Below are positions 2,359 to 53,054 of a stretch of 64,000 nt of DNA, in pieces; position 1 is the first letter of the stretch; each line of letters starts with the position of its first letter. Location of the stretch: assembly GCA_022828125.1 (NCBI GenBank), contig JAJEJD010000030.1, positions 26,176 to 90,175 on the forward strand. The letters are read 5' to 3'. The DNA is from a bacterium (GTDB taxonomy: Bacteria; UBA8248). The position numbers were made by a program, and so were the translations under genes. The notes beneath the pieces are model-generated. The model was not told the DNA's origin. It searched no databases and saw nothing but the letters and a program-made list of their open reading frames with translations.

Positions 2359-4018
2359 GGCGAGCGGTCACGTCGATACGTTCGCCCGGGATAATCTGCC
2401 GCCTGAATCCCTGTGGCCGGAGATGGACTACGGCGTTCTTCCGGAGTTGGCCGCCTATCCGGCGCGGATCAACGCGGGCGCCGAGTTGATAGACAAGATA
2501 GCTCAAGGCGCGCAGTCCGAGCGGCCCGCGGTTTATTACGGTGAAGTGCTTTGGAGCTACCGCGACCTTTTGGAGAACGCGAACCGCATCGCCTCGGTGA
2601 TGACCGAGCGCTTCGGCCTCGTACCCGGAAACCGCGTGCTCCTTCGCTCATCGAACCATCCCACCCTCGTGGCCGCGTGCCTTGCGGTTCTAAAGGCGGG
2701 CGGGGTGGTGATCCCGACCATGCCGGTGATGCGCGAGCGCGAGCTGGCCTATGTGATCGAAAAAGCGCGAGTGGGTTTCGCGATTTGCGACGATAGACTG
2801 AGCGCGGATTTACTGGCCGCGGCGAAGTCTTCCGAATCGCTCGAAAACGTCGTTTGCTTCGGGGGCGACGAACCGGGCGGCCTCGAAGCCCTGATGGCCG
2901 AAGCCTCGCCCGAATTCCGAAACGCGGATACGGCGGCGGACGACGTGGCCCTCATCGGCTTCACCTCGGGTTCGACGGGCACGCCCAAGGGCACGGTGCA
3001 TTTCCACCGCGACCTGCTCGCCGTCGCGGACACGTTTCCCAAGTACCTCTTCGGTCTGGGGCCGGATGACGTCGTTTGCGGCAGCCCGCAGATCGCCTTT
3101 TTGTACGGGTTTTGCGCCTTCGTCACCGACGCCTTGCGCTTCGGCGCGTCCTCCGTTCTGCTCGAGAGGGGGACGCCGCGCGATCTGCTCGAAGCTATCG
3201 ACAGATACCAGGGCACGGTGTGCTTCAGCACGCCATCGGGCTACAAGCAGATGCTCGACGTCGCGGAAGGATACGACCTCCGCAGCCTGCGCGCCTGCAT
3301 CGCGGGGGGAGAGCCGCTGGAACCCTTCGTGTTCCGCGAATGGAAGGAGCGAACAGGCGTCTCGATTATCAACGGCTTGGGCATCTCGGAGCTATTGCAC
3401 ATCTTCATCTCGGCGAGCGGGAAGGACATCCGCCCCGGAAAGATTGGCCGGGCGGTGCCGGGCTACGAGGTGCGCGTGGTGGATGAGGAGATGCGCGACA
3501 CGCCCCCCGGAGAGGTGGGGCAGATGATCGTGAAAGGCCCCACCGGCTGTCGCTATCTCGACGACCTGGAGCGGCAGCGGAACTACGTGCGGGAGGGCTG
3601 GAACATGACGGGCGACCTCTGCCGGGTCGACCCGGAGGGGTATATCTCCTTCGAGGCGCGAACCGACGACATGATCAACACCGGGGGGTACAACGTCTCG
3701 GGCCTCGAAGTCGAAGCCGTGCTGCTCGAACACCCCGAGGTGCGCGAGTGCGCGGTGGTCGGCTCGCCGAACGCAGAGCGCGGGGAGATCGTGAAGGCGT
3801 TCGTCGTTCTCTCGGGAGACGCCGGAGCAGACACAGATGAAGCGGCGGACGCGCTGGTCCGGGAGCTTCAGGATTTCGTGAAGGCGCAGCTTGCGCCTTA
3901 TAAATACCCGCGAGCGGTGGAGTTCCTGGAAAGCCTGCCCTTGACGGCCACAGGCAAGATACAACGAGGCGCTCTTCGGAAGCTGGAGAAAGAGCGCGCG
4001 GGGGACGGGGCGGACTGA
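2348..4018 (+). CDS. AMP-dependent acyl/aryl-CoA synthetase-ligase (benzoate/2-aminobenzoate-CoA ligase-like)
   Basis: 556 aa. AMP-binding signature FTSGSTGTPKG and C-terminal PLTATGKIQR. Its start overlaps the upstream stop by 11 nt. Confidence 0.85.
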   Translation: MSAEASGHVDTFARDNLPPESLWPEMDYGVLPELAAYPARINAGAELIDKIAQGAQSERPAVYYGEVLWSYRDLLENANRIASVMTERFGLVPGNRVLLRSSNHPTLVAACLAVLKAGGVVIPTMPVMRERELAYVIEKARVGFAICDDRLSADLLAAAKSSESLENVVCFGGDEPGGLEALMAEASPEFRNADTAADDVALIGFTSGSTGTPKGTVHFHRDLLAVADTFPKYLFGLGPDDVVCGSPQIAFLYGFCAFVTDALRFGASSVLLERGTPRDLLEAIDRYQGTVCFSTPSGYKQMLDVAEGYDLRSLRACIAGGEPLEPFVFREWKERTGVSIINGLGISELLHIFISASGKDIRPGKIGRAVPGYEVRVVDEEMRDTPPGEVGQMIVKGPTGCRYLDDLERQRNYVREGWNMTGDLCRVDPEGYISFEARTDDMINTGGYNVSGLEVEAVLLEHPEVRECAVVGSPNAERGEIVKAFVVLSGDAGADTDEAADALVRELQDFVKAQLAPYKYPRAVEFLESLPLTATGKIQRGALRKLEKERAGDGAD

Positions 4019-4200
4019 CGTATCGCGCAGGCTTAACCGCCGGAGCCGGTTGCGCGCGGTGGTTTTTCGCTCATCCGGGGAAATTCCGGCGGCGTCTCAC
4101 TTTGAAAACGGGAACGTCACGAAGGCGGGATATGAGTCTCATCAGAAGGTGTCAAGACTGTATTTGAATGAATAGTTAATTATCCTTTGCCCACCAAGAG

Positions 4201-4450
4201 GATGTTGAAAAAGTCATCCTCCTCAGGAGATAAAGGCAACCCCCCCTACCCCCCCCCTTGACAGGGGGGCAAGAAAAAGCAAAACCCCCTCATCCCAGCG
4301 GGGACGCATTGCCTTTTTATACCCCCCTGTCAAGGGGGGGGTAGGGGGGGTTGGTTTTCAAGGCGAGAGCCTGCGCCGCCGCCCGGTTTCGGGTTTTCGC
4401 CGGAATGACGGTGGTGGTCAATTCCGACCGAGGATGACTTTCTCAACAAC
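4201..4450. repeat. Composite MITE-like element: T-type inverted ends enclosing an R1 poly-C/poly-G palindrome and a partial R3 arm
   Basis: Ends are GTTGAAAAAGTCATCCTC (4204-4221) and GAGGATGACTTTCTCAAC (4429-4446), which are inverted repeats. R1 arms span 4229-4353. TTCGCCGGAATGACGG (4395-4410) matches the R3 arm at 29561-29573. Confidence 0.65.
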
Positions 4451-4472
4451 CCCTTTCCCGTCTTGCGGCGGT

Positions 4473-4501
4473 TTTGATAAACATGGTATTCTCTTTCATT
4501 A
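4473..4501 (+). promoter_or_regulatory. Candidate sigma70-type promoter upstream of the NitT/TauT ABC operon
   Basis: TTGATA (4473-4478), 17-nt spacer, CATTAT (4496-4501), in an AT-rich stretch about 170 nt upstream of the GTG start at 4673. Confidence 0.3.
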
Positions 4502-4672
4502 TATTCATCATCAAATTATCCAATGCTCTTTCGGTATCACTGTGTTCATTGTGCAGAGGGATAGAAAGAGAACCTCACTTTCTCAATACATAGTGTGCGC
4601 CCCGTCTCGGGGCGTTGGATGAGTTCATGACGCAAGCCGCGCAACCTGCGGCCCAGAGGGGAGGCTGAAATC

Positions 4673-5719
4673 GTGGATAACAGAACGAACGTACGGGGTC
4701 TCATCTTCAAATCGGTTTTGGCGGTCATCCTGGGAGTGGCGCTCGTCTTCACCGCCGCCACGCCTTCGGAGTCGGCCGTCAAGCGGGTCGTCATCACCCA
4801 GGCGGTCGAGAGTCTCGCCTTCGTCAGCAACTACGTGGCGCGCGCGAACGGCTACTTCGCCGAGGAGGGTCTGGCGGCCGAGGTCATCTCCACGCGGGGC
4901 GGCGGGCCGGACATCAAGGCCAACCTCGCGGGTCAGGCGGATTTCTCCATCGCGGCGGGCACCTACCAGATCAACGCCGTGAAGGCGGGCGGCGCCCTCG
5001 TGGCCGTGATGAGCTGCCTCAACCGCAGCATCGTCAACTCCGCCATCCGCAAGGACGTCGCCAAGAGGCTCGGCATCACCGCCAAGACGCCCTACAAGGA
5101 AAAGCTCAAGAAGATGAAGGGCCTGACCGTGGGCGCCACGCGCCCCGGCGCGCTCACCTACAACCAGGGTGAATACTGGATCCGCCAGGCCGGCTACACG
5201 CCCAACAAAGAGGTGAAGCTCATCGGCGCGGGCGCAGGTCCGGTGCTCGTCGCAGCGCTGCAGCGCAACAAGATTCAGATAGCGATCCAGACGATTCCCG
5301 TGCCGGAGACGGCCATATTCAAGGGCATCGGCATTCCCTTCGTCACGAACTCCGCGGGTGATGACCCGGAGATGGACCAGTTCATGATGGAGGTCCTGCT
5401 CGTGCGGCCCGATTACGCGAAGAAAAACCCCGAGACCGTCCGCAAGGTGGTCCGGGCGCTTCTCAAGGCCAACAACTGGATCGCCAAGCACAGCGCGGAG
5501 GATATTCGCAAGAAGATACAGCTCTACTTCGCCAAGACCGACAAGAACCTGCTGCGCGTGAGCATCGAGGCGGTGAAGACGGCCGTCTCGCTCGACGGGA
5601 AAATCACCCAGCGCGCGGTGGACATCACCCAGAACCTGCTCATCGCCGCGGGCAAGCTCAAAAAGGCGTTCCCCAGGAGCACCCTGGTGACGGACGAGTA
5701 TCTGCCCGGCAAGATGTGA
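4673..5719 (+). CDS. ABC transporter substrate-binding protein, NitT/TauT (NMT1/SsuA-like) family
   Basis: 348 aa. GTG start preceded by AGAGGGGAGG. N-terminal signal-like hydrophobic segment. It sits next to the matching ATPase and permease. Confidence 0.75.
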   Translation: MDNRTNVRGLIFKSVLAVILGVALVFTAATPSESAVKRVVITQAVESLAFVSNYVARANGYFAEEGLAAEVISTRGGGPDIKANLAGQADFSIAAGTYQINAVKAGGALVAVMSCLNRSIVNSAIRKDVAKRLGITAKTPYKEKLKKMKGLTVGATRPGALTYNQGEYWIRQAGYTPNKEVKLIGAGAGPVLVAALQRNKIQIAIQTIPVPETAIFKGIGIPFVTNSAGDDPEMDQFMMEVLLVRPDYAKKNPETVRKVVRALLKANNWIAKHSAEDIRKKIQLYFAKTDKNLLRVSIEAVKTAVSLDGKITQRAVDITQNLLIAAGKLKKAFPRSTLVTDEYLPGKM

Positions 5720-5743
5720 GCGATAACTTCCGACTCTGACAAA

Positions 5744-5781
5744 CCGCCGGGGAGAGGCTGCTTTCGGCTCTTCCCCGGCGG
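5744..5781 (+). terminator. Imperfect GC-rich stem-loop directly after the binding-protein gene
   Basis: CCGCCGGGGAGAGGC ... GGCTCTTCCCCGGCGG. No clear T tract follows, so it is more likely an attenuator or 3'-end stabiliser than a full terminator. Confidence 0.35.
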
Positions 5782-5797
5782 CGGAGATTCATACGCC

Positions 5798-6601
5798 GTG
5801 CCTCCAATTCTCTCTATCAAGAACCTGCAAAAAGAATTCTTCTCGCGTGGAAACCGCGTACTCGCCGTCGAGGATTTGAGCCTCGACATCGAAGAGGGCG
5901 AGTTCCTCACCATCGTGGGGCCGAGCGGCTGCGGGAAGTCCACGCTGCTGAACTGCATCATCGGGCTGGTGCACCCCACCTCGGGCGTCATCACCTACAA
6001 GGACAAGAAGCTGCACGGCATCAACACCGATATCGGCTACGTTCCGCAGTCGGACTATCTCTACCAATGGCGCACGCTCATCAACAACGTCGCCTTTCCG
6101 CTGGAGATGCGGGGAGTCGATCAAAAAACCAGGCACGAAAAGGCGCGCGAGTTGATCCAGCGCGTCGGTCTGGCGGGATTCGAGGATCACTACCCCCACG
6201 AGCTCTCGGGCGGGATGCGCCAGCGGGCCAACATCATACGCACTCTTATCTATGACCCCGATGTCATCCTGATGGACGAACCCTTCGGGCCCCTGGACGC
6301 CCAGACGCGGATCATCCTTCAGGACCAGCTTCTGAAACTCTGGCGCGAGGCCAGAAAAACCGTCATATTCATCACGCACGACCTCGTGGAGGCCATTGCG
6401 CTTGCCGATCGGGTCGTCGTCATGACGAGCCGGCCCGGCAACTTGAGGAGCGTGGCCGAAGTGGACATCCCGCGTCCGCGCGACGTGTTCACCATCCACA
6501 GCCAGGAGGCGTTCCGCAAAACCTACGATCAGCTGTGGCAGGAATTGCGCGAGGAGGTCCAGCGCAGTGAGGATTGGATGAAAAACGGGTCCGCGGGTTA
6601 A
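5798..6601 (+). CDS. ABC transporter ATP-binding protein, NitT/TauT family
   Basis: 267 aa. Walker A GPSGCGKST, signature LSGGMRQR, Walker B ILMDEP. GTG start. Confidence 0.9.
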   Translation: MPPILSIKNLQKEFFSRGNRVLAVEDLSLDIEEGEFLTIVGPSGCGKSTLLNCIIGLVHPTSGVITYKDKKLHGINTDIGYVPQSDYLYQWRTLINNVAFPLEMRGVDQKTRHEKARELIQRVGLAGFEDHYPHELSGGMRQRANIIRTLIYDPDVILMDEPFGPLDAQTRIILQDQLLKLWREARKTVIFITHDLVEAIALADRVVVMTSRPGNLRSVAEVDIPRPRDVFTIHSQEAFRKTYDQLWQELREEVQRSEDWMKNGSAG

Positions 6602-6627
6602 AGCGAGCGGATGAGAGGAGGGTCCCC

Positions 6628-7725
6628 ATGGTCGACATGATCGATAAAGAGGCGAGTGAGGACAAGGGAGCGAGTGAGCCGGAACAGAGCGCTCAGGAGG
6701 CTCCCGCCCGCGTCAGGCTGCCCAAGCTGGGCGAGATCCTCCTGACGATTCCCCTGCCAGGCGTACCGCAACTCTGGCGGGGCGATTACCTGATTGGCGC
6801 GCTCCTGCTGGGCCTCACCGCGGCCGGCTACATGATGTGCTCGGTCACGGGCATGTTCTTCCACGCCATCGCGTTCGTTGACGTCTCCATCACGCACACT
6901 GGCCGCATCATCAAGAACTCACGCCTGCGCATGTTCGCCTACCGGGCCTCTTTCGCGGGCGGCTTTCTGGCGATGTGGGAGCTCAGCGCATGGGAACTTG
7001 GCCCCAAGCAGTGGCTCTGCGTGGATCCGTTCTGGTTCGGTTCGCCCCTGCGCGTCATGGACTATATGGTGGAGATAACCCTATCGGGCAGCCTCTTCGT
7101 CGATACCTGGACGACGATGTACGAGGCCTTCCTGGGCTACGTCCTGGGCGCGGCTCTCGGCATTGCCCTGGGCTTCATCCTGGCGCGGCTGGAGACACTG
7201 GCCGAGATACTCGACCCCTTTATCGTCGCGGTGAACGGCATTCCGCGCGTGGCGATGGCGCCGATTCTCATCATCTGGTTCGGCATCGGGGTGGAGTCGA
7301 AGATCGTGCTGGCGGTGAGCCTCGTGCTCTTCCTGACCTTCATGAACACCTACTCGGGCCTCCGGGGCGTGGACCCCAACCTCAAGAACCTCGCCCAGGT
7401 GATGGGCGCGAACGAGATGCAGGTTCTCTGGAAGGTCACGCTGCCCGCCGCGATGCCCTGGATACTCACGGGCCTGAAAATTGGCGTTCCGTTCGCCATC
7501 ATCGGGGCCATCCTGGGCGAGTTCATGGCGGCGAGCAAGGGTCTGGGCTTCATGATCCAGCACACGAGCAACCTGTTCAACATCGCGGGTTCGTTCGCGG
7601 GCCTCATCCTGCTCATGTTCATCGTGCTCATAGCCAACGCGGCGGTGAACTGGCTGGAGCGCTATCTCCTGCGCTGGCGGCCCAAGCAGCAGGCCGCCGG
7701 CGAGAGCGCGACGGATGTGTATTAG
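6628..7725 (+). CDS. ABC transporter permease, NitT/TauT family, with about 100 aa N-terminal extension
   Basis: I prefer the ATG at 6628 (GAGAGGAGG upstream) over the track start at 6574. Multiple TM segments. The C-terminal half resembles SsuC/TauC-type permeases. Confidence 0.85.
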   Translation: MVDMIDKEASEDKGASEPEQSAQEAPARVRLPKLGEILLTIPLPGVPQLWRGDYLIGALLLGLTAAGYMMCSVTGMFFHAIAFVDVSITHTGRIIKNSRLRMFAYRASFAGGFLAMWELSAWELGPKQWLCVDPFWFGSPLRVMDYMVEITLSGSLFVDTWTTMYEAFLGYVLGAALGIALGFILARLETLAEILDPFIVAVNGIPRVAMAPILIIWFGIGVESKIVLAVSLVLFLTFMNTYSGLRGVDPNLKNLAQVMGANEMQVLWKVTLPAAMPWILTGLKIGVPFAIIGAILGEFMAASKGLGFMIQHTSNLFNIAGSFAGLILLMFIVLIANAAVNWLERYLLRWRPKQQAAGESATDVY

Positions 7726-7756
7726 GGTTTCGGGCTCGTATTCTATCTGATTGGTC

Positions 7757-7830
7757 GCAGGGACGGACCACGAGCCGCCCCTGCAATTCCGTTGCGGGTC
7801 TCGTAAGGACAGGTCGCGACCTGTCCCTAC
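7757..7830. repeat. Two R2-type GC hairpin repeats
   Basis: GCAGGGACGGACCACGAGCCGCCCCTGC (7757-7784) and GTAAGGACAGGTCGCGACCTGTCCCTAC (7803-7830). The second is nearly identical to 42431-42458. Confidence 0.7.
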
Positions 7831-7926
7831 AACACCTTCATGCGCCTTTGTCCGGCGAGAAGTTGACGTTCTCTTCACCAAACCCTAGTATCATTTCAAT
7901 TCGCCCCTTGGCAGTACGCTGTGCTC

Positions 7927-8748
7927 CTAGCGATCATGAGCGCAGCCGATCCCTGGGGGCTTTTTTACGTCCGGCGGCCAGGGGGTGACGCCGATTTCCC
8001 CGCGCAGGAGGCGGCGGAACGCGGCCCGCCGCCGGATATCGCGCGAGACGGCGCTCACGACGCGCCGCCACGTCACCGAGATGACGCCCTCTGCGCGCTT
8101 GTGTTCGGCGCGCGCGAGTCTGCGGTCGCGCTCTATCTGGGAATCGTCCTGCTCGTCGTGCGAGACGACGGGCGGGTCGACGTAGAACACGTTCAGCCCG
8201 TTCTCCCAGAACCGGGAGAGCGCCTGGTCGATTTCGCGCATCATCTTCGGCGTGTTCTCGATGAAGTGCCGCGCCGCATCGCGCGTGATGACGTAGCCCT
8301 CGCTGCCGTAGTCGTGGTAGCGCACCCGGCCGACGCGGTGCCCCGTCTCGAGTCGTTCGCACGGAATGAAGGTTCTGCGCGAGCGCCGGTTCAGCTTCAC
8401 GACGTCGAAGGCGAACGGCCTGCGCTCCAGGGCGTCGAGCACCTCGGGCAGGTCCGCCGACAGTCCGGCGTCGTCTTCAAAGACGCCCGCGGTTTCCGGG
8501 CCGTTCTCCGCGATTTCGTTCATAATCTGGTAATGACTTAACCAACAACCGATTTCCGTATCCGCCTGGGGCCAAAGGCCCAGCCGCCGCCTGGTTTCCC
8601 TGTCGACCATAGAGTAAGTCTCTTGGGTAAAATCCCGAATGTCGGCGGCGGGGTGAAACGCCGCTTTCAGAGCAAGAGAGGCGAACTGCTCCTCCATCCG
8701 GCGGCGGCGCTCCTCGGCCCTTTCGAGATTGATGACGAACACTTTCAT
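7927..8748 (-). CDS. Glycosyltransferase family 25 (LOS/LPS beta-1,4-galactosyltransferase-like)
   Basis: Start chosen at MKVFVINLERAEERRRRM, the canonical GT25 N-terminus. The track ORF extends to 8826. Confidence 0.8.
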   Translation of the reverse strand: MKVFVINLERAEERRRRMEEQFASLALKAAFHPAADIRDFTQETYSMVDRETRRRLGLWPQADTEIGCWLSHYQIMNEIAENGPETAGVFEDDAGLSADLPEVLDALERRPFAFDVVKLNRRSRRTFIPCERLETGHRVGRVRYHDYGSEGYVITRDAARHFIENTPKMMREIDQALSRFWENGLNVFYVDPPVVSHDEQDDSQIERDRRLARAEHKRAEGVISVTWRRVVSAVSRDIRRRAAFRRLLRGEIGVTPWPPDVKKPPGIGCAHDR

Positions 8749-43976: not shown

Positions 43977-44939
43977 TTATTTCTTCTTCACGAGCTTGTC
44001 CACGAGCGCCTTCATGTTCTTGTTTTCCTCCACCATGAAGGATTCGAAGTCCTTCCCGCTCATGTAGATCACCCGCTCGCCCATGCGCTTCACCATGGAC
44101 TGGAAGGATTTGTCCTTCACCCCCTTGTCGAACGCCGCCCGGAGCTGGGCCAGGATGTCCGCGGGCGTCTTCCTGGACGCGAAGACCGTCCGGAACATGG
44201 CGAACTGCACGTCGAAGCCCTGCTCCTTCATGGTGGGCAGGTTCGGAAGCTGGGGCAGCCGGTCCGGCGCCGTGATGGCGAGAACGCGGACATTTCCCTT
44301 GGAGAGCTGGGGCATCACCGTGGAGGCGAAGGCGGGGGCGATGTCGATGTGCCCGCCGAGGAAGGCCTTCCAGGTGGGGCCGCCGCCCTGGAACGGGACG
44401 AATTTCAGCTTGATGCCCGCCTTGAGCGAGAGAAGCTCCATGGGAATCTGGTCCACCCCCAGGCCGGGGACGCCGCCGAAGGAGATCTTGCCCGGCCTGC
44501 GCTTGGCGTCCTCGATCAGGTCGCGCAGGTTCTTCCATGGGGCGTCTTTCTTCACGGTGATGAGAAGCGGGCTGTAGTTGATCCGCCCCACCGGCACGAA
44601 GGACGCCGAGGTGTAGGGAAGGCTCTCGATGAGAGGCTTCACCAGGATGCTCTGCTGATCGCCCAGGATCAGCGTGTGCCCGTCCGCCCGCGCGCGGGCC
44701 ACGAAGCTCGCTCCGATGGAGCCGCCGCCGCCCGCCCGGATGACCGCGAGCATGGGCTGGCCCAGATAGGGTTCCATGACGCTCGCGAAGGCGCGCGCGT
44801 GCGCGTCGTGCGAGCCGCCCGGCGAATAGGGAATAACCAGCCGGACGGGCTTGTTCGGAAACTTCGCTGCCTCCAAGTGGGTCGGCGCCAGCCAAAGGGC
44901 CATGGCCGCGATGAGCAATACTGCCGAGAGTCGTTTCAT
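43977..44939 (-). CDS. tctC: TctC/Bug-family substrate-binding protein, locus 3
   Basis: 320 aa from the ATG at 44939 (CAGGAGGG RBS). Signal peptide. FPNKPVRLVIPYSPGGSHD. Confidence 0.9.
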   Translation of the reverse strand: MKRLSAVLLIAAMALWLAPTHLEAAKFPNKPVRLVIPYSPGGSHDAHARAFASVMEPYLGQPMLAVIRAGGGGSIGASFVARARADGHTLILGDQQSILVKPLIESLPYTSASFVPVGRINYSPLLITVKKDAPWKNLRDLIEDAKRRPGKISFGGVPGLGVDQIPMELLSLKAGIKLKFVPFQGGGPTWKAFLGGHIDIAPAFASTVMPQLSKGNVRVLAITAPDRLPQLPNLPTMKEQGFDVQFAMFRTVFASRKTPADILAQLRAAFDKGVKDKSFQSMVKRMGERVIYMSGKDFESFMVEENKNMKALVDKLVKKK

Positions 44940-45007
44940 GGTGAGTCCCTCCTGTGGGTTGACTTGCCTGCTTTGAAATCGTGCGCCCAGATTCAATGAA
45001 ACCCTCC

Positions 45008-46513
45008 TCATTCATCGCTGCCCAGCGGGGTTCGGCGGCGGGCGCCCCAGACGACGAACCCCGCGGCCAGCAAGAGGAAAACGAGCGATATAGGCCGGCG
45101 GACGAACAGGGAGAGGTCGCCGTCTCCCAGAATGAGCGATTGTCCGAGGGAAGACTCGAACGCCTGCCCCAGAATGAAGGTGATGATCAGGGGCGCGACC
45201 GGGAAATCGAATTTTCTCAGAAAATAGCCCACCGCACCGAATACCAGCATCACCTTCACGTCGAAGAAGCTGTTGTTCAGCGCGTATGTCCCCACCACGC
45301 AGAACGCCGCCACCACGGGGAAGACCGCCCGTTTCGGGAACCGCGCGATCATGGCCACGTAGCGCAGGCTGAAATGCCCGAGGACGAGCATGAGGGCGTT
45401 GCAGAGCAGCATGGCGATCAGGATGCTGTAGACGATCGCGCCGTGCTCCTCGAAGAGGCGCGGCCCCGGGCGGAGCCCCTGCACCATGAAGGCGGCGAAG
45501 AGCACCGCGGTCACGATGTCGCCCGGGATGCCGAAGCTGAGCAGGGGGATGAGGCTCGAACCGTTCACCGCGTTGTTGCCGGTCTCGGCGGCGGCCACCC
45601 CCTCCAGCGATCCCTTCCCGAACCGCTCGGGCTCCTTCGACCTCCGGTGGGCCAGGCCGTAGGAGACGAACGCGGACACCACCTGACCCAGGCCCGGTAT
45701 CGCGCCGATGATCGTGCCGACCACCGCCGAGCGCGAGATCGTCCGGCCGCAGCTCCTGAACTCCTCCAGGGTCAGGGGTTCGTTGCCCTCGGCATCCCAC
45801 GCGGTCACGCGCCTCTCGTCCTCGGCTTTGCGCTCCTCCCGGGTCCTCTCTCCGTAGAGGAAGATCTCGGAGAGCGCGAAGATTCCGATCAGCATCGCGA
45901 TGAAAGAGATTCCCCCGGTCAGGTCCACCGAGCCGAAGGTGAAGCGCCGCACCCCGATCAGGGGGTCGAGTCCGACCGAGCTCAGGAACAGCCCGAGGGC
46001 GGCGGCCATCAGCCCCCGGATCACCGAGCGGCCCGTGACGCAGCTGATGATGGCGAAGCTGAACACGAAAATAGCGAAATATTCCGGCGGCCCCACCAGG
46101 AGGGCGACCGCCGCGATGGCGCCCGCGATGAAGATGGTGACGACATCGCTGAAGGTGTCCCCGATGACGGAGGAATAGAGCGCCATCTCGAGGGCCTTCC
46201 TCGCCTTGCCCTGCTGGGCGAGGGGGTAGCCGTCCAGGACGGTGGCGGCGGCCGCTCCCGTCCCCGGCGTGTTGATGAGAATCGCGGGTATCGATCCGCC
46301 GAATATCGCTCCCTTCGTGATGGCCAGGAGGAAGGGAATCCCCAGAACGGGTTCGACGAAAAAAGAGATCGGCAGCAGAACCGCCACCGCCATGGCGGCC
46401 GTGAGGCCGGGGAGGCCGCCCACCACGATCCCCAGCAGCATCCCGATCACCAGGACCGCGAGCACGTCGAAGCGCAGGCTCAGGAGCAGGCCTTCACCCA
46501 GCTGGGCCCACAT
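45008..46513 (-). CDS. tctA: TctA-family large permease, locus 3
   Basis: 501 aa, colinear with the two other TctA paralogues. Confidence 0.9.
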   Translation of the reverse strand: MWAQLGEGLLLSLRFDVLAVLVIGMLLGIVVGGLPGLTAAMAVAVLLPISFFVEPVLGIPFLLAITKGAIFGGSIPAILINTPGTGAAAATVLDGYPLAQQGKARKALEMALYSSVIGDTFSDVVTIFIAGAIAAVALLVGPPEYFAIFVFSFAIISCVTGRSVIRGLMAAALGLFLSSVGLDPLIGVRRFTFGSVDLTGGISFIAMLIGIFALSEIFLYGERTREERKAEDERRVTAWDAEGNEPLTLEEFRSCGRTISRSAVVGTIIGAIPGLGQVVSAFVSYGLAHRRSKEPERFGKGSLEGVAAAETGNNAVNGSSLIPLLSFGIPGDIVTAVLFAAFMVQGLRPGPRLFEEHGAIVYSILIAMLLCNALMLVLGHFSLRYVAMIARFPKRAVFPVVAAFCVVGTYALNNSFFDVKVMLVFGAVGYFLRKFDFPVAPLIITFILGQAFESSLGQSLILGDGDLSLFVRRPISLVFLLLAAGFVVWGARRRTPLGSDE

Positions 46514-46514
46514 C

Positions 46515-46997
46515 CTAGAAGACCCCGCCGAAAAGCCTGCCTTCCGGCAGAACGACGCCCAGAAAATGTCCGAAGAAGACCCAGATGAACAGCGGGGTGA
46601 GCAAAACGATCAGCGCGAGGGTCCGCCATTCGCGCATCCCGAGCTGACAGGCGAACAGGGCGACCGCGACGGGGGTGGCGGGGAGCATACCGAACCACTC
46701 GACCAGGAGGATGTAGAGGACGAAGGTGGCGAACGGCGCCAGGGCGCGGGCCCGAAGCGGCCCGCCGGGAAGCGGCTCACGCCCGGCGGAGGGGGCGAAC
46801 CAGCTCCGCGCGGTCATCAGGGCGGCCATGAGCGCCAGCAGGGAGAGGGCCAGCGCGGGGAAGGCGCCGGGCGGGAACGGGATGGTCCGCTCCCCCAGCT
46901 TCCGGAGCAGCACCTGGCTGGGTATCAGCGCAAGCCCGGCCAGGCTGAAGGCGAGAACGAAAAGCCCGACCCACGTTTCCCAGTGAAATCGCTTCAT
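46515..46997 (-). CDS. tctB: TctB-family small membrane protein, locus 3
   Basis: 160 aa hydrophobic protein directly upstream of tctA. Gene order here is B-A-C, unlike loci 1 and 2. Confidence 0.7.
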   Translation of the reverse strand: MKRFHWETWVGLFVLAFSLAGLALIPSQVLLRKLGERTIPFPPGAFPALALSLLALMAALMTARSWFAPSAGREPLPGGPLRARALAPFATFVLYILLVEWFGMLPATPVAVALFACQLGMREWRTLALIVLLTPLFIWVFFGHFLGVVLPEGRLFGGVF

Positions 46998-47263
46998 GGT
47001 GCCCGCCCTCCAGCCGAACGCTCATGACTGCGAGGCCGGCTCTCCGAGCAAAGCGCAGCGATGATCGACCTGACGCTCCCCCGCGGAAAACTTCCCGGTG
47101 AAGGGTCACGCTTCCGGCGGTCTTTTGGGGGCCGGGGGAGCCGTCATTTCGATTTCTGCTATGAACGCAGATTACGGGAGGGCGTCTTTCGGGTCAAACG
47201 GAATCGTTTCCCGACCCGCTCCGCCGCCGCTTTTTCACCGGGTGCGCATGGGAACTCTCCCGA

Positions 47264-47701
47264 ATGTTTTACCTTCGCGATTTTGCCTCGGTTGCCACCC
47301 CAAAACCCCTTGTGTAGTGTTGATCGTACCGAAAAGACAGATTCTCTGAATTCCTGCGCGGGGGAGGATGCCATGGCTGCGAAGTCCAGGGTGGATGTCC
47401 TGATCGAGAACGGAACCGTCGTCACCGTGGACCCGCAGCGGCGGGTCATCCGCAAAGGCGCCGTCGCGATTGCGAAGAACCGGATCAAGGACGTGGGGAA
47501 GGCTTCGGCGCTCCGGAAAAAATACGAGGCCAGGCGCACCTACGACGCCACCATGAAGCTCGTCACCCCCGGCCTCATCAACGCGCACATCCACTTCTAC
47601 CACCACATGCACCGGGGCCTCTCGCCCGAGACCCTGGCGGGCATGCCGTGGTCCGACTTCGTCCACCGCAAGGTCGCCACCATCGTGAATGCGGAGGACG
47701 A
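47264..47701. repeat. Direct duplication, copy 1 (amidohydrolase leader plus first 110 codons)
   Basis: Aligns base-for-base with 50342-50779 with scattered substitutions. The encoded peptides differ at 8 of 110 positions. Confidence 0.9.
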
Positions 47702-47702
47702 T
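47373..47702 (+). pseudogene. 5' fragment of a TRZ/ATZ-type amidohydrolase gene, truncated by the AT-rich insertion
   Basis: MAAKSRVDVLIENGTVVTVDP...NAHIHFYHHMH... matches the first 110 residues of 50451-51839. After 47702 the frame runs into unrelated low-GC sequence. Confidence 0.85.
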
Positions 47703-47977
47703 AAAATCAAAGCCAAGAACCAGATCAATAAGAACCCTCAGGGTGCTGCCCCCCCCCGAAGAAAATCATTCCACATATCCCTGGGACACCGGAATAAATC
47801 GCGAAGGCGCTCTTCGACGCCAACGACAAGAGATTCCAGACTCCGGGTTGAGAGCAAGAGTTCTTGTGCCTGCCTTTCCTTGAGGCAGTAGTGCCTTTCT
47901 CAGCCCAGGTCCGGAGAGGAGACTGATAGACCCTTCCACTTGAGATACCTCTCTCCAGGCCGCATGGAGGGTTCATC

Positions 47978-48052
47978 ATGTATGAAATAACTGTATGGGT
48001 TTTTCTGATCAGCGGAATCGTCACGGCCGCAGTTTTTGGCATTTCCATATAA
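47978..48052 (+). CDS. Possible 24-aa hydrophobic micro-ORF (MYEITVWVFLISGIVTAAVFGISI)
   Basis: ATG with GGAGGG about 7 nt upstream and a single predicted TM helix. It lies at the head of the island cassette and is too short for the ORF track. Confidence 0.25.
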   Translation: MYEITVWVFLISGIVTAAVFGISI

Positions 48053-48165
48053 ATTGCAAAATTGGACAATGTATGATATTTTGCGCTCCGATCTCTAAAC
48101 ATTTTCAGAGGGGAACGGTGCCTTTCGAAGGGGCTGTTGCCCTATTTCTGTTTAAGGAGATTTTA

Positions 48166-48438
48166 ATGACACCGCCCGAACCAACAAACATTATCGGACC
48201 GGATGGAACTCCCAGGAAAGCTTACGATGTTCCGATCTTAGAGTCCAACGAAAAAGTTAGCGAAGTAAAGCTTGAAGATGGAACAATTCTTTACGTTAAG
48301 GCATCGCCTATCAGCGTTCTTAGGATAGATGGCGTGTGGGATGCCCACAACAACCCTATGTATTCGGTTCAAAGCAACACGGTAATCGGAGTAAAACACG
48401 CCCCGACTCAGTTAAAGAGGGGGCATGATGATGGCTAA
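48166..48438 (+). CDS. Hypothetical protein (90 aa), island cassette gene 1
   Basis: ATG with AAGGAG 7 nt upstream. The sequence looks beta-rich. No family recognised. Confidence 0.5.
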   Translation: MTPPEPTNIIGPDGTPRKAYDVPILESNEKVSEVKLEDGTILYVKASPISVLRIDGVWDAHNNPMYSVQSNTVIGVKHAPTQLKRGHDDG

Positions 48439-48943
48439 ATTCAGCGCACATGCGATATCGGATACACCACATTTCTCTGCGGGCGAATGGTGGAGTTCTG
48501 GGGTCGTTCAACGTGTTGATGACAGTAAAACCAGAGAGAATCTTCCTACGCAAACAGAGCTCTCCCAGTCTGAAAATTTTTACACTGGAATAGAAAATAT
48601 AATGAATGAGCTTCTCAGGATTAGGGAAGTCGCCAAAGATGAAGGATTCCTTGAACCTTCCGGAATGGTTATTCAGAGCGCAGAAAAAGTGTTAAATAAA
48701 ATTCATGCAATCTATCCTCGGGAATACGATATTTTCCCAACCCCAGATGGGGAAATATCCATTGAGACTCCTATAGGAATCGGCAGCTCACTGTGGTGTA
48801 TTTGCAAACCTTCTGGGCAAGTAATATTCATGGTTTACATTCAAGGAGAAAAACAGCGTCGTAAAGATTATGATGATCTAATGGCCTTTCCCGATGAATT
48901 TGTTATTAAAGCTTTGAACGATCTTAAAGCTCGAATAAACTAA
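48425..48943 (+). CDS. Hypothetical protein (172 aa), island cassette gene 2
   Basis: ATGATGATG start preceded by AGAGGGGG and overlapping the gene 1 stop by 14 nt. No family recognised. An internal start (MNELLRIREV) is possible. Confidence 0.5.
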   Translation: MMMAKFSAHAISDTPHFSAGEWWSSGVVQRVDDSKTRENLPTQTELSQSENFYTGIENIMNELLRIREVAKDEGFLEPSGMVIQSAEKVLNKIHAIYPREYDIFPTPDGEISIETPIGIGSSLWCICKPSGQVIFMVYIQGEKQRRKDYDDLMAFPDEFVIKALNDLKARIN

Positions 48944-48952
48944 TTCCACGCA

Positions 48953-49381
48953 ATGCTTCCAGAAGAATTTTCTCCAGAAGAAAAGCTCGGGCGTTACGTC
49001 ACATCCAAACCCAACGCTGCCGGAAGAATCACCCATCATGTTTTCTTTGACAAGAAACAGGACGCATTATCCGTTGACAGGCTCAGCTATGCCTCTTGTG
49101 ATGAAGCGGCAAAGCTTGGAGATGAATTTGCCGAAAGTATCGGTAGGAATTTTTACGGTTGGGGTGTTGTTTTAGCTGGAGATGCGGAGAAAGATGAACG
49201 TAGTTTATTATACCAGCCCATTCTTCCAGAGAATCCTTACCATAGCCATATAATTCTGCCGGACATATCTGAAAGTGGCAAATATGAACATGCCCATGCA
49301 TTGGCAAAAAAAGCACACTTCAAACCAAAACCCCAAACTGATCCATCCGATTGTTCATCCGCGGAGATAGAAAATGAGTGA
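48953..49381 (+). CDS. Hypothetical protein (142 aa), island cassette gene 3
   Basis: Starts 9 nt after the gene 2 stop. Contains LSVDRLS and ENPYHSHIILP segments. No family recognised. Confidence 0.55.
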   Translation: MLPEEFSPEEKLGRYVTSKPNAAGRITHHVFFDKKQDALSVDRLSYASCDEAAKLGDEFAESIGRNFYGWGVVLAGDAEKDERSLLYQPILPENPYHSHIILPDISESGKYEHAHALAKKAHFKPKPQTDPSDCSSAEIENE

Positions 49382-49721
49382 AGAAGAGATCAAAAAAGGA
49401 TGGGAAGAGTCCAGGGAACCGTTCGACGAAGAGGAAATAAAAAAAGAGCTTGAAGATATCAGGCAAGGGATGACTCAACTTGAAGATTCCATAGGTGGAG
49501 AATTGGTTGCCATTAGGGGTGTTCTTGGCCTGACTTTTCGCTTGGCCTTAATTTTGGCTCCTAATGATACTAGACGTTTATGTATAGAACAGATTAAAGA
49601 TTTGGAGATAGGCCCTGGAAGTGATTTAACAAAGGAAGAATTTAATAGGTTCAAGGAAATATTTATCCAAGAAATCCCTGATAGCTTTACAGAAAATCCG
49701 TCCAACGAACTTTCAGACTGA
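49374..49721 (+). CDS. Hypothetical protein (115 aa), island cassette gene 4
   Basis: The start overlaps the gene 3 stop by 8 nt. Acidic coiled-coil-like N-terminus (EEEIKKGWEESREPFDEEEIKKELEDI), then a hydrophobic stretch. Confidence 0.5.
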   Translation: MSEEEIKKGWEESREPFDEEEIKKELEDIRQGMTQLEDSIGGELVAIRGVLGLTFRLALILAPNDTRRLCIEQIKDLEIGPGSDLTKEEFNRFKEIFIQEIPDSFTENPSNELSD

Positions 49722-49819
49722 TCCACTACCCATTTTTTGCATTATTTCCCCTTCGTCAAAAGAAAAAGCCTCATCTGCACGGCCTTCCTCTCCAGCTCAC
49801 TCCATTTCGTGAGCTCACT

Positions 49820-50220
49820 CTAAGTAAGCCGTTTCCCTTCGAACCCCTGCACCAGCACCTTCATGCCCCGAGGGGCTCCAGTGGCCGCATATTGTGGCGT
49901 CCGACAAACTCGTTCACATAGCGGTGCAGATGCTTGGAGCTCATCTTGTGATAGGTGCCCATGTATCTGCGCTTGTGTAGCGCCTAGAAGGACTCCACCC
50001 GGTGCATGACGGTGTTGGTGCGAACGCTGAAATACTCGCGGCAGTCGGTGCATCAATACGGCATGGGCTTCTCTCTGGGTACGCATGAGATTTTTACGGA
50101 GCCGCAATAGGGGCAGAATTGTCCCTTACCCCAGCGGATATCTTCGAACCATTTCCGTGCGGTTTCTTCATTCGGGAACATATTAAGTAGCTGAATGAGC
50201 GTGATGGCTTCCTGAGTCAT
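49820..50220 (-). mobile_element. Decayed IS1595-family (ISXO2-like) transposase remnant
   Basis: The minus-strand translation starts MTQEAITLIQLLNMFPNEETARKWFEDIRWGKGQFCPYCGS...CTDCREYFSVRTNTVMH (Zn-ribbon N-terminus). It then jumps to GTYHKMSSKHLHRYVNEFVGRHN (C-terminal motif). In-frame TGA at 50053-50055 and TAG at 49984-49986. The central DDE domain is missing. Confidence 0.75.
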
Positions 50221-50341
50221 TTGAAGTCTTCCATTATGTGTGAGGACTTTCCCGAACGGAAATGCTTTCTACAAAGTAGGAGACGAGAAATTATGTTAAG
50301 TTAGATGCACTAAATTATGCCTAGTCAGGTAAGTAAGTCCC

Positions 50342-50779
50342 ATGTTTTACCTTTGCCGTTTCGCCTCGGTTGCCACCTAAAAACCCCTTGTGTAGTGTTG
50401 ATCGAACCGGAAAGACAGATTCTCTGAAATCCTGCGCGGGGGAGGGTGCCATGGCTGCAAAGACCAAGGTGGATGTCCTGATCGAGAACGGAACCGTCGT
50501 CACCGTGGACCCGGAGCGGCGGGTCATCCGCAAGGGCGCGGTCGCCATAGCGAGGAACCGGATCAAGGACGTCGGGAAGGCTTCGACGCTTAAGAAAAAA
50601 TACGAGGCCAGACGGACCTACGACGCCACCATGAAGCTCGTCACCCCCGGCCTCATCAACGCGCACATCCACTTCTACCACCACATGCACCGGGGTCTCT
50701 CGCCCGAGACCCTGGCGGGGATGCCGTGGTCCGACTTCGTCCACCGCAAGGTCGCCACCATCGTGCGTGCGGAGGACGA
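50342..50779. repeat. Direct duplication, copy 2 (leader plus first 110 codons of the intact amidohydrolase)
   Basis: See 47264-47701. Confidence 0.9.
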
Positions 50780-51839
50780 GATATGGGGCGGACTCGGGAT
50801 TCTGGTCGAAACCCTGAAGACCGGCGTGACGACCTTCCTCGAGGCGGGCTCCTACAACATCGGCCCCGTCATCGAGGGCGTCTCCCGCATCGGAATGCGG
50901 GGCCTGATGGGCCGCAGGTCCTTCGACATGGTGAGCCAGGGCCACGACATGCTGGTCGACAGCACCCGGAAGTGCCTGAGCGAGAACGAGAAGTTCATGA
51001 AGGACTACCGGGGCGGGGTGGGGCTCGTGAAGCCCTGCGTCGTCGTCGTCGGGATGGGGCGCTGCTCGGACCGGCTCTACGTCAAGTCCAAGGAGATGGC
51101 CGACAAGTACCGGACCATCCTCCACATGCACCAGGCCAACATGATCGAGAATGTCCAGGAGAGCCTGAGCTTAAACGGCGCCCGCCCCATCGAGCATCTC
51201 TACAACATCGGCGTCCTCGGGAAGAACGTGGCCCTCACCCACATGGTCCACGTGAGCGCGAAGGAGATCGGGCTTCTCGCCGAGACGCGGACGAACGTCC
51301 TGCATTGCCCGAGCACCGCCATGAAGATCAGCTACGGCCTCTCCGCCTTCGGGAAGTTCCCGGAGATGATGGAGGCGGGCGTCAACGTCGCCATCGGCAC
51401 CGACGCGTCCGACTGCTCGAACTTCAACGACATGGTGCGCCTCATGTACCTGGCGGCGGCGACGCCCAAGGACTACCGCTACGACCCGGCCGCGGGGAGC
51501 GCCGAGAAGGCCATCGAGATGGCGACCATCAACGGCGCAAAGGCGATGAACATGGAGCGGGAGATCGGTTCACTGGAACCGGGCAAGAAGGCCGACGTCG
51601 CCATCTTCGACATGAAGCGGCCGGACTGGGTCCCCCTCTACAACGAGCTCCAGAATTTCGTCTATTCGGCCCAGGGGAACAGCTGCGAGAGCGTCATGGT
51701 CGACGGGAAGTTCGTGATGGAGAACCGCGAGGTCAAGACGATAGACGAGGCGGAGATCGTGGAGCGTATCGGGCGCCTCGCGAAAGGGGTCATCAAGCGG
51801 AGCAAGGTGCCGCTCTACAGCCCGTGGAAGTTCATCTAG
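50451..51839 (+). CDS. Amidohydrolase, TRZ/ATZ / cytosine-guanine deaminase-like (metal-dependent hydrolase superfamily)
   Basis: 462 aa from the ATG at 50451 (GGGGGAGGG RBS). HxH motif NAHIHF. Later HMHQ, HCP and GTDA segments fit the amidohydrolase metal ligands. Confidence 0.85.
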   Translation: MAAKTKVDVLIENGTVVTVDPERRVIRKGAVAIARNRIKDVGKASTLKKKYEARRTYDATMKLVTPGLINAHIHFYHHMHRGLSPETLAGMPWSDFVHRKVATIVRAEDEIWGGLGILVETLKTGVTTFLEAGSYNIGPVIEGVSRIGMRGLMGRRSFDMVSQGHDMLVDSTRKCLSENEKFMKDYRGGVGLVKPCVVVVGMGRCSDRLYVKSKEMADKYRTILHMHQANMIENVQESLSLNGARPIEHLYNIGVLGKNVALTHMVHVSAKEIGLLAETRTNVLHCPSTAMKISYGLSAFGKFPEMMEAGVNVAIGTDASDCSNFNDMVRLMYLAAATPKDYRYDPAAGSAEKAIEMATINGAKAMNMEREIGSLEPGKKADVAIFDMKRPDWVPLYNELQNFVYSAQGNSCESVMVDGKFVMENREVKTIDEAEIVERIGRLAKGVIKRSKVPLYSPWKFI

Positions 51840-51866
51840 CCCCGGCCGCCACGAGGAGGAACCCCC

Positions 51867-53000
51867 ATGACGCGCATCGCCACCACCCACGTCGGGTCGC
51901 TTCCCAGAAGCGAGCGGGCGCTCGATTTTCTCTTCGCCCGCGACCGGGAGGAGCCCTACGACGCGGACGAGTTCGCCGCCTGCATGGCGGAGGAATGCGC
52001 GGAGACGGTTCGCAAACAGGTCGAAGCCGGGGTCGACATCGTCTCGGACGGCGAGACTTCCAAGATTTCCTACACCACCTACGTCAAGAACCGCTACACC
52101 GGCTTCTCGGGCAACAGCGCGCGGGCCGTGCCGGGGGACCTCAAGCTCTTCCCGCGCTATCTCGAGCGCCTCGCAAGCCAGGGCGGGACGCCCAAGCTCG
52201 TCCGCCCGCAATGCACCGGGCCGGTCGCACCCAGGGACGACGTGGAACTTACGGCCGACATCGCCAATATGAAGGACGCGATGGCGGCGCACGGTGCGGA
52301 GCGCGGATTCCTGAACGCGGCGTCGCCCGGCGTGGTCGCGCTGTTCATGCCGAATGCCTACTACCCCTCCCGCGAGGCCTATCTCGAGGCCCTCGCCGAC
52401 GCGATGAAGGCGGAGTACGACGCGATACTCGCGGCGGGCTTCGACCTCCAGATCGACTGCCCGGATTTGGGCCTCGCGCGCCACGTGCTCTACGAGGATC
52501 TTTCCGACGCCGAGTTCGGCGGGATCGCGAAGGCCAACGTCGAGATACTGAACCACGCCCTGCGCGACGCCGACCCGGCGCGGGTGCGTGTCCACATCTG
52601 CTGGGGCAACTACGAGGGGCCCCACGTGTGCGACGTGGGGCTGGACCACGTGTTCTCCGCCCTGATGTCCGCCCGCGCGCGCTACGTCCTGTTCGAGAAC
52701 GCGAACCCGAGGCATGAGCACGAGTGGACCGTATTCCGCGACCGGCGCGACGAGATTCCCGGGGAGACGATACTCGTGCCCGGCGTCATCGACACGACGA
52801 GCAACTTCGTGGAGCATCCCGAGCTCATCGCGCAGCGCATCGGGCGCTTCGTGGATATCTTTGGTCCCGAGCGGGTTATCGCCGGAACGGACTGTGGGTT
52901 CGGGACGTTCGCCGGCTTCGGGTCGGTCGATCCCGAGATCGTCTACGTCAAGCTCGCGGCCCTGGCCGAGGGCGCCGCCATCGCGTCCGGGAGAATCTGA
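51867..53000 (+). CDS. MetE C-terminal-like (cobalamin-independent methionine synthase fold) protein, second paralogue
   Basis: 377 aa. THVGSLPRS, ICWGNYEGPH and TDCGFGTFAG. Colinear with 27299-28435. Confidence 0.75.
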   Translation: MTRIATTHVGSLPRSERALDFLFARDREEPYDADEFAACMAEECAETVRKQVEAGVDIVSDGETSKISYTTYVKNRYTGFSGNSARAVPGDLKLFPRYLERLASQGGTPKLVRPQCTGPVAPRDDVELTADIANMKDAMAAHGAERGFLNAASPGVVALFMPNAYYPSREAYLEALADAMKAEYDAILAAGFDLQIDCPDLGLARHVLYEDLSDAEFGGIAKANVEILNHALRDADPARVRVHICWGNYEGPHVCDVGLDHVFSALMSARARYVLFENANPRHEHEWTVFRDRRDEIPGETILVPGVIDTTSNFVEHPELIAQRIGRFVDIFGPERVIAGTDCGFGTFAGFGSVDPEIVYVKLAALAEGAAIASGRI

Positions 53001-53054
53001 GGCGCGCCCGGCCGGGTAACGCCGAGGCGGGGGCGGCTGTCTCGAAGGCGAGAT

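Follow-up and report, generated by a model that had tools for sequence, protein, structure and literature searches.

The window analysed here is a stretch of 64,000 nucleotides (nt; positions 26,176 to 90,175) from contig JAJEJD010000030.1 of the bacterial assembly GCA_022828125.1 (GTDB lineage UBA8248). It contains an insertion of AT-rich DNA that encodes a small cassette of tightly packed open reading frames (ORFs), O1 to O4. Two of these, O2 and O3, belong to protein families whose genes occur as a pair in many other genomes, and this pair is the main subject of the present work. Coordinates given without a locus number are positions in the 64-kb window, and numbers such as L003 or L018 denote individual loci compared from other genomes. 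The insertion and the two genes at its core are:

47702..50341, no strand: inserted AT-rich DNA of 2640 bp, delimited by its GC (guanine plus cytosine) profile, by empty sites and by an independent Logan contig
48425..48943, plus strand: O2, 172 amino acids (aa), proposed neutraliser (antitoxin or immunity protein), identified by homology to the gene upstream of O3 homologues
48953..49381, plus strand: O3, 142 aa, proposed effector (toxin), characterised by family search, invariant residues and an AlphaFold2 model

In a word-indexed homologue search, O3 and O2 each matched only themselves. An exhaustive HMMER search with O3 returned 245 cluster representatives at E<=1e-3, and an O3 profile search recovered at least 672 proteins, most about 130-150 aa long, in which no Pfam domain was found and of which the few named ones are hypothetical proteins. 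We compared two sets of loci, 84 seeded with O3 and 79 seeded with the O2 domain. An O2-like gene lies directly upstream of O3 on the same strand in all 84 O3-seeded loci. Independent gene calls place overlaps of 1-4 nt between the two genes in nine other loci, and in the window they are separated by a gap of 9 nt. The pair occurs in Latescibacterota, Chloroflexota, Acidobacteriota, Nitrospirales, Binatia, Alpha- and Gammaproteobacteria, Bdellovibrionales and others. All genome matches of the family are metagenome-assembled genomes (MAGs), and many of the record names, such as Candidatus Entotheonella or 'lac_sponge', point to sponge or coral metagenomes; some of the bin sets we take to be from sponge studies. 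Judging by these names, the carriers are apparently sponge- or coral-associated.

The two genes differ in how they are lost. An intact O3 follows directly downstream in 57 of the 79 O2-seeded loci, and the remaining 22 have none. Seven of these 22 keep an N- or C-terminal O3 stub of 23-32 aa right after a full-length O2, and no substitute conserved gene was found downstream of O2 in the O3-less loci. An O3 without O2 was not found among the 84 O3-seeded loci. Such repeated loss of O3 with O2 kept, and never the reverse, would be expected of a poison-antidote pair. Two related loci from Dehalococcoidia, L120 and L121, resemble L005 in that O2 precedes leuD; L120 has no O3, and in L121 only its last 26 residues are left. 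A different arrangement is seen in L020 (Latescibacterota), where O2, O3 and a second O2-like gene follow each other (5531-5980, 5986-6429 and 6426-6860), so that the putative neutraliser is encoded twice in this locus.

Composition and neighbourhood indicate mobility. The GC content of the module is below that of its flanks in most loci, with a median difference of -4 points and extremes of -24 in the window and -23 in L018. Insertion sequence (IS) elements lie near the module in L005, L006 and the window, and in L119 copies of IS3 are found on both sides of a triple formed by O2, O3 and a further upstream gene, up2 (described below). The IS3-type transposase genes of L119 (HTH_Tnp_1 + rve) have the same orientation at 2972-4050 and 6611-7785, with another on the other strand at 906-2122. 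Together with the triple they form a composite-transposon-like arrangement.

The O3 family consensus reads ...E.LGR.VFS...ISVDRL...FYGWAV...GR.V.ASP...NPYHADI.LP...HAQELAD.S.W. Fourteen residues are invariant in the family, and all of them are present in the window protein (E10, L12, R14, S18, F31, S40, R43, F67, W70, R83, H97, L102, P103 and L117). The AlphaFold2 model of O3, built from 121 sequences, has a pLDDT (predicted local distance difference test) of 84.8 and a pTM (predicted template modelling score) of 0.77, with the topology beta-alpha-beta-alpha-beta-beta-beta-alpha-beta. With its invariant residues, many of them polar, and its confident predicted fold, O3 looks like an enzyme. 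A Foldseek search of the model against the PDB gave no fold neighbour (best E 0.74, template modelling (TM) score at or below 0.22), and the best match in BFVD was an unnamed viral protein (E 0.036, TM 0.42), which we hold to be uninterpretable. Two candidate assignments were dropped: an R-S-E arrangement resembling that of ADP-ribosyltransferases, as no such enzyme is among the 50 fold matches listed, and a HEPN Rx4-6H motif, as the window O3 lacks its R and has an alpha/beta fold.

O2 consists of a variable N-terminus of ~55 aa, which is probably disordered, and a conserved C-terminal domain of ~115 aa. The latter shares homology with the gene that immediately precedes each O3 homologue examined (phmmer E 1e-6 to 1e-26). 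The family is acidic, with a median isoelectric point (pI) of 4.8, and its conserved positions are mostly hydrophobic and acidic. A structure model of O2 from the single sequence was unusable (pLDDT 45). A B-box-like zinc site in O2 was dropped as a candidate, the second Cys being missing from the window protein and the match to TRIM21 reaching only E 0.011. In 43 of the 84 loci, a third conserved gene, up2 (~237 aa), precedes a longer O2. Profile-profile comparison shows up2 to be unrelated to O1, the gene that precedes O2 in the window, and the comparisons of O3 with up2, O2 with up2 and O1 with O3 were likewise negative.

Some copies of the module lie inside defence operons. About 11% of the family loci, a share given without a genome-wide background rate, are nested in Hma operons (L003, L004, L011, L014, L033, L041, L051, L056, L084, L113 and L114). 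Here, the SNF2+NOV_C helicase lies on one side of the module and the DUF1156 methylase on the other, with the DUF499 ATPase beyond. The junctions are tight in L011, where O2 begins at 5552, right after the helicase end at 5551, and the methylase begins at 6411, just before the end of O3 at 6414. Other family loci are near PIN_3 or AAA_23/helicase genes. Hma is a Type-1 BREX-related system whose helicase-nuclease has antiphage activity (PMC11232893, PMC12839542). In Halomonas meridiana, the Septu system (PtuAB) is embedded between hmaA and hmaB (PMC11232893), and a survey of BREX-related systems describes auxiliary effectors sited within such loci (PMC12839542). The O2-O3 module uses the same slot as this Septu, from the SNF2-nuclease helicase to the DUF1156 methylase, and in L113 it adjoins an AAA_15/AAA_21 gene of PtuA type. 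Unlike Septu, it encodes neither an ATPase nor a recognisable nuclease, its proteins are unrelated, and most of its copies stand alone.

Two further arrangements were seen. In L113 (2352-4344) and L114 (1684-3692), an AAA_15/AAA_21 ATPase gene and a small gene lie between the Hma helicase and up2-O2-O3, placing two separate cassettes within one helicase-methylase gap. In L117 and L118 (3648-4397), a stand-alone gene for a 249-aa NOV_C protein (a PD-(D/E)XK nuclease) without an SNF2 helicase is located ~230 nt upstream of up2-O2-O3; this gene could be what is left of an Hma helicase, or else encode a partner in its own right.

From this genomic context, we propose that O2 and O3 constitute a two-gene, translationally coupled toxin-antitoxin-like module of two undescribed families, a reading to which we assign a probability of about 55%. 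O3 would be the harmful effector, a small alpha/beta protein whose invariant polar residues R14, S18, S40, R43, R83 and H97, together with the near-invariant D42, are enzyme-like. The acidic O2 would bind and neutralise O3 via its conserved C-terminal domain, and its variable N-terminus probably docks an exchangeable third partner encoded upstream. O1 would fill this place in the window and one related genome and up2 in roughly half of all the other loci, with O4 and a micro-ORF of the window being local extras. The module is envisaged to spread horizontally among uncultured, apparently sponge- or coral-associated bacteria and often to lodge in Hma operons. Because of this spread and frequent lodging, it would most likely serve as an abortive-infection or addiction cassette, and a defence role of O2-O3 is plausible.

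A more far-reaching version is conceivable, which we put forward only tentatively. Here, O3 would be a new enzymatic toxin fold, with S40, R43, H97 and the near-invariant D42 forming the active site with R14 and R83. O2 would restrain it, and O1 or up2 would act as sensors that trigger it upon phage infection. The result would be a hitherto unrecognised abortive-infection system that horizontal transfer has spread over at least 10 phyla of sponge and coral symbionts and that can add a second defence line when plugged into Hma/BREX-related operons.

The proposed module shares several features with type II toxin-antitoxin systems: two small, co-oriented and coupled genes, an acidic upstream partner, an optional third gene upstream as in tripartite variants, a patchy horizontal spread, links to both IS elements and defence loci, and GC below that of the flanks. 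In addition, the downstream gene is never alone, and the upstream gene often outlives its loss. In contrast to type II systems, O2 and O3 show no likeness, whether of sequence or of fold, to described families of toxins or antitoxins. Most type II antitoxins carry a DNA-binding domain, whereas among 65 O2-family members no meaningful match was found to helix-turn-helix (HTH), ribbon-helix-helix (RHH) or AbrB models. O3 is not basic either (median pI 6.1 in the family, 5.2 in the window protein), and a near-neutral pI is less typical of a toxin. The pair also differs from polymorphic toxin/immunity pairs, since every O3 homologue listed stands alone as a protein of 82-184 aa and the partner gene lies upstream rather than downstream.

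The dissimilarity to known toxins and antitoxins, the missing DNA-binding domain and the pI of O3 weigh against the toxin-antitoxin-like reading, and further observations have to be set beside them. Searches of Pfam, NCBIfam, PADLOC and PHROGs with O1-O4 and with 40-121 members of each family gave nothing usable, and sequence and profile searches of the PDB found no match for O3 or the window O2. No O3 homologue was found on sequenced plasmids or phages. The window O3 deviates from the consensus at several near-invariant positions, with HADI, for example, replaced by HSHI. O3 comes last in the operon, a position that by itself could raise its proneness to deletion. Scans of the region for promoters and terminators gave no signal over chance. 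Furthermore, the window cassette is surrounded by urease, TctABC, amidohydrolase and amidase genes, with no defence gene within 10 kb on either side. This includes the SNF2 helicase, the DUF1156 methyltransferase and the DUF499 ATPase, and the largest ORF of the whole window has 805 aa, versus ~930-1190 aa for Hma proteins.

These results bear on a preliminary description of the region, made from the sequence alone, which had regarded the four small proteins as unplaceable and as a coupled cassette of toxin-antitoxin or defence-like character. Profile, structure and fold searches, including that of the O3 model against the PDB, indeed find no known family, and the curated libraries assign none of the four, yet O2 and O3 turn out to belong to large unnamed families. 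The coupling holds for the O2-O3 core, for which co-occurrence in other genomes, suggested there as a check, is strong. It does not extend to a four-gene unit, O1 being found in one related genome, O4 being an orphan and the micro-ORF not being conserved. The toxin-antitoxin-like loss pattern, the Hma nesting and the proximity of IS elements agree with that description as well, but in the window itself the cassette lies among metabolic genes rather than in a defence island. The interpretation given there is hence partly supported, being right in kind for the O2-O3 core.

Only one library match of any sort was obtained. Among 86 family members, three O2-like proteins matched the PADLOC model PDC-M32A at E ~9e-4 and 16 bits, with the start of the conserved O2 domain of L037 aligning to profile positions 254-318 of 375. 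Neither the window O2 nor most family members match this model, O3 and up2 have no counterpart in PDC-M32, and we treat the similarity to its protein A as a lead only. None of O1-O4 matched the models of PADLOC-DB v2. The best PDB E-values of the O2 and up2 family profiles, 0.011 and 0.58, are not meaningful.

The position of the module in Hma operons raises the question of whether O2-O3, with or without the upstream partner, are accessory subunits of Hma/BREX-related restriction. They could act as regulator, sensor or backup effector, the stand-alone copies being stranded fragments. The nested loci with the tight junctions of L011 and the NOV_C gene ahead of the triple in L117 and L118 agree with such a role, as do the auxiliary effectors reported from BREX-related loci (PMC12839542). 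However, most loci, among them the window, L005, L018, L115 and L119, have no Hma genes nearby, and their O2-O3 pairs are nevertheless intact and coupled and keep the invariant residues. The same slot also takes unrelated cassettes (AAA_15/21, Septu), which fits better with a hotspot for hitch-hiking modules, and we give a role as Hma subunits little credence. Rather unlikely, in our view, is that the pair is mobile cargo without toxicity, such as an enzyme that modifies small molecules, accompanied by a chaperone or regulator, or a factor for interaction of sponge symbionts with their host. The pairing would then simply reflect a functional complex. This would suit the non-basic O3, the lack of a DNA-binding domain in O2 and of any likeness to known toxins, and the fact that, by record names, the family is nearly confined to MAGs of sponge- and coral-type communities. 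But an obligate complex leaves unexplained why O3 alone is lost and O2 kept in 22 of 79 loci, and neither the nesting in defence operons nor the carriage by IS elements would be accounted for.

It could also be that the window cassette itself is inert, a recent and unexpressed remnant that decays along with its IS, in which O4 and the micro-ORF are chance ORFs. The neighbouring IS is heavily decayed, the promoter scan stayed at chance level, O4 and the micro-ORF have no homologues, and O1, O2, O3 and O4 each form a singleton cluster. Against this, O1, O2 and O3 are intact and retain all family-invariant residues and coupling signals, and O1 is under purifying selection relative to its homologue in L018. 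The repeats flanking the insertion have meanwhile diverged by ~7%, which indicates an old event or a diverged donor. We consider an inert cassette very improbable.

If the toxin-antitoxin-like reading of O2-O3 is correct, the module would add three families (O2, O3 and up2) that lie outside Pfam, NCBIfam, PADLOC, PHROGs and the solved structures to the repertoire of toxin-antitoxin or defence systems. Screens of cultured isolates would miss it, because all genome matches obtained here are MAGs. It would also provide an example of a mobile immunity cassette that is shared across phyla in host-associated marine communities (by record names), and would single out the boundary between helicase and methylase genes in Hma/BREX-related systems as a place where additional cassettes can dock. 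O3 is well suited to structural work and enzymology, as it is small, has a confident model and offers few invariant polar residues to mutate.

The insertion that brought the cassette into the window is bordered by a long direct repeat and contains the remains of a transposase gene:

47264..47701, plus strand: left, shortened copy of a 438-bp target duplication, a direct repeat; the TctB side of the chromosome is contiguous with it
50342..50779, plus strand: right copy of the 438-bp duplication, which runs on into the intact amidohydrolase gene (50451-51839)
49820..50220, minus strand: decayed IS1595-family transposase, with zinc ribbon, C-terminal piece and in-frame stops, its DDE core lost

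The GC content of the insert is ~42% compared with ~65% for the genome. Along the window, it falls from 0.60-0.70 outside to 0.40-0.48 between ~47.8 and 50.4 kb. The leftmost ~260 bp of the insert (47702-47960) have an intermediate GC of ~56% and no assignable ORF. In three related genomes (L091, L092 and L097), the site is empty, and the TctCBA genes and the amidohydrolase gene are contiguous. Window positions 44000-47701 align to positions 2625-6329 of these loci and window positions 50342-53008 to positions 5892-8558. It follows from these alignments that the window has 2640 extra bases in addition to the 438-bp target duplication. Rather than a short target-site duplication, this is a direct repeat of the target, and each copy comprises the upstream region of the amidohydrolase gene and its first ~110 codons. 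The two copies are 91% identical over the first 300 nt and 93.2% identical over 438 nt, with 30 positions differing, and both are about as distant from the relatives as these are from each other.

The sharp drop in base composition between two copies of the amidohydrolase 5' end, noted in the preliminary description, is borne out by the GC profile and the 438-bp repeat. The empty sites in relatives agree with its view that the DNA is foreign. Its notion of a disrupted host gene has to be given up, because the right repeat copy continues into a full-length amidohydrolase of 462 aa, which is 93-97% identical to its orthologues over the full length (several of these MAGs are labelled Nitrospinota). 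A misassembly can be rejected as well. The window derives from a metagenome scaffold (sample SAMN22237338), and a Logan contig assembled independently from this sample matches it at 100% identity over 47658-50497. Since both junctions recur in this contig, the island is no assembly chimera.

The low-GC segment of 2.6 kb would have brought the module in along with an IS1595 element, which decayed later. In the simplest scenario, a circular molecule bearing a homologous 438-bp fragment derived from a related lineage would have integrated into the chromosome by a single crossover. Such a crossover would duplicate the fragment and spare the amidohydrolase gene. The repeat architecture and the 30 differences fit a single homologous crossover with DNA of a related lineage that left the amidohydrolase intact. 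In the alternative scenario, the 438-bp repeat stems from an old duplication. The placement of TctCBA differs between L091, L092 and L097 on the one hand and the relatives L089, L090, L099, L101, L103 and L108 on the other. In close relatives of the host, these genes are located either directly upstream of the amidohydrolase gene or ~2-4 kb downstream in the locus, and from the two placements we conclude that the neighbourhood has been rearranged between related genomes.

The IS next to the cassette, which had been recognised as decayed from the outset, matches Zn_ribbon_IS1595 (PF12760) at E 2.5e-7, over the curated cut-off, and in tblastn it matches annotated transposases. What is left are ~75 N-terminal and ~55 C-terminal residues with stops. 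It resembles IS1595-family insertion sequences in the N-terminal zinc ribbon of the transposase and a recognisable C-terminal segment. It differs from them in having lost the DDE core, in its in-frame stops and in lacking terminal inverted repeats, which were looked for and not found. The element is a remnant that is unable to mobilise the cassette now.

The remaining ORFs of the cassette are:

48166..48438, plus strand: O1, 90 aa, accessory gene of this cassette subtype, with an AAGGAG ribosome-binding site and a homologue in L018
49374..49721, plus strand: O4, 115 aa, pI 4.3, with GGAG upstream, coding-like codon statistics and an 8-nt overlap with O3
47978..48052, plus strand: micro-ORF of 24 hydrophobic codons, with GGAGGG upstream; its status as a gene is unsupported

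Coordinates, overlaps, gap and motifs resembling ribosome-binding sites all agree with those first described. O1 overlaps O2 by 14 nt and O3 overlaps O4 by 8 nt, and Shine-Dalgarno-like sequences precede O1 (AAGGAG), the micro-ORF (GGAGGG) and O4 (GGAG). O1-O4 exceed chance ORFs: together, the island's four longest stretches without a stop amount to 586 codons, more than in any of 2000 Markov-1 simulations, and all four ORFs show a coding-type codon-position bias (GC1 > GC2, purine-rich first positions). An Rfam scan of the region gave no match above chance. Neither the 84 family loci nor scans of genomes and metagenomes yielded a relative of O4; this is an orphan ORF, probably coding, outside the conserved module. 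The micro-ORF has no counterpart upstream of O1 in L018, the only related cassette, and was dropped as a candidate type I toxin, as it is not conserved.

A single O1 homologue was found, at 5195-5461 of L018, where it occupies the same place ahead of O2-O3, and O1 is specific to this cassette subtype. The two proteins are 75% identical, compared with 28% for O2 and 39% for O3. With 0.14 nonsynonymous (pN) against 0.74 synonymous (pS) differences per site, O1 is under purifying selection and is thus a real, constrained gene. A match of O1 to a viral contig was spurious, being short and to a 218-aa ORF beside a 688-aa ORF, both unannotated. The O1-O2-O3 cassette of L018 has a GC content of ~40% in a genome of 63% GC (OZ244713.1), which is related to the host of the window but carries its cassette at another site. 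At 5131-5156 of L018, ~40 nt upstream of the O1 homologue, there is a perfect 9-bp inverted repeat, CTATTGTCA-N8-TGACAATAG, which may be an operator.

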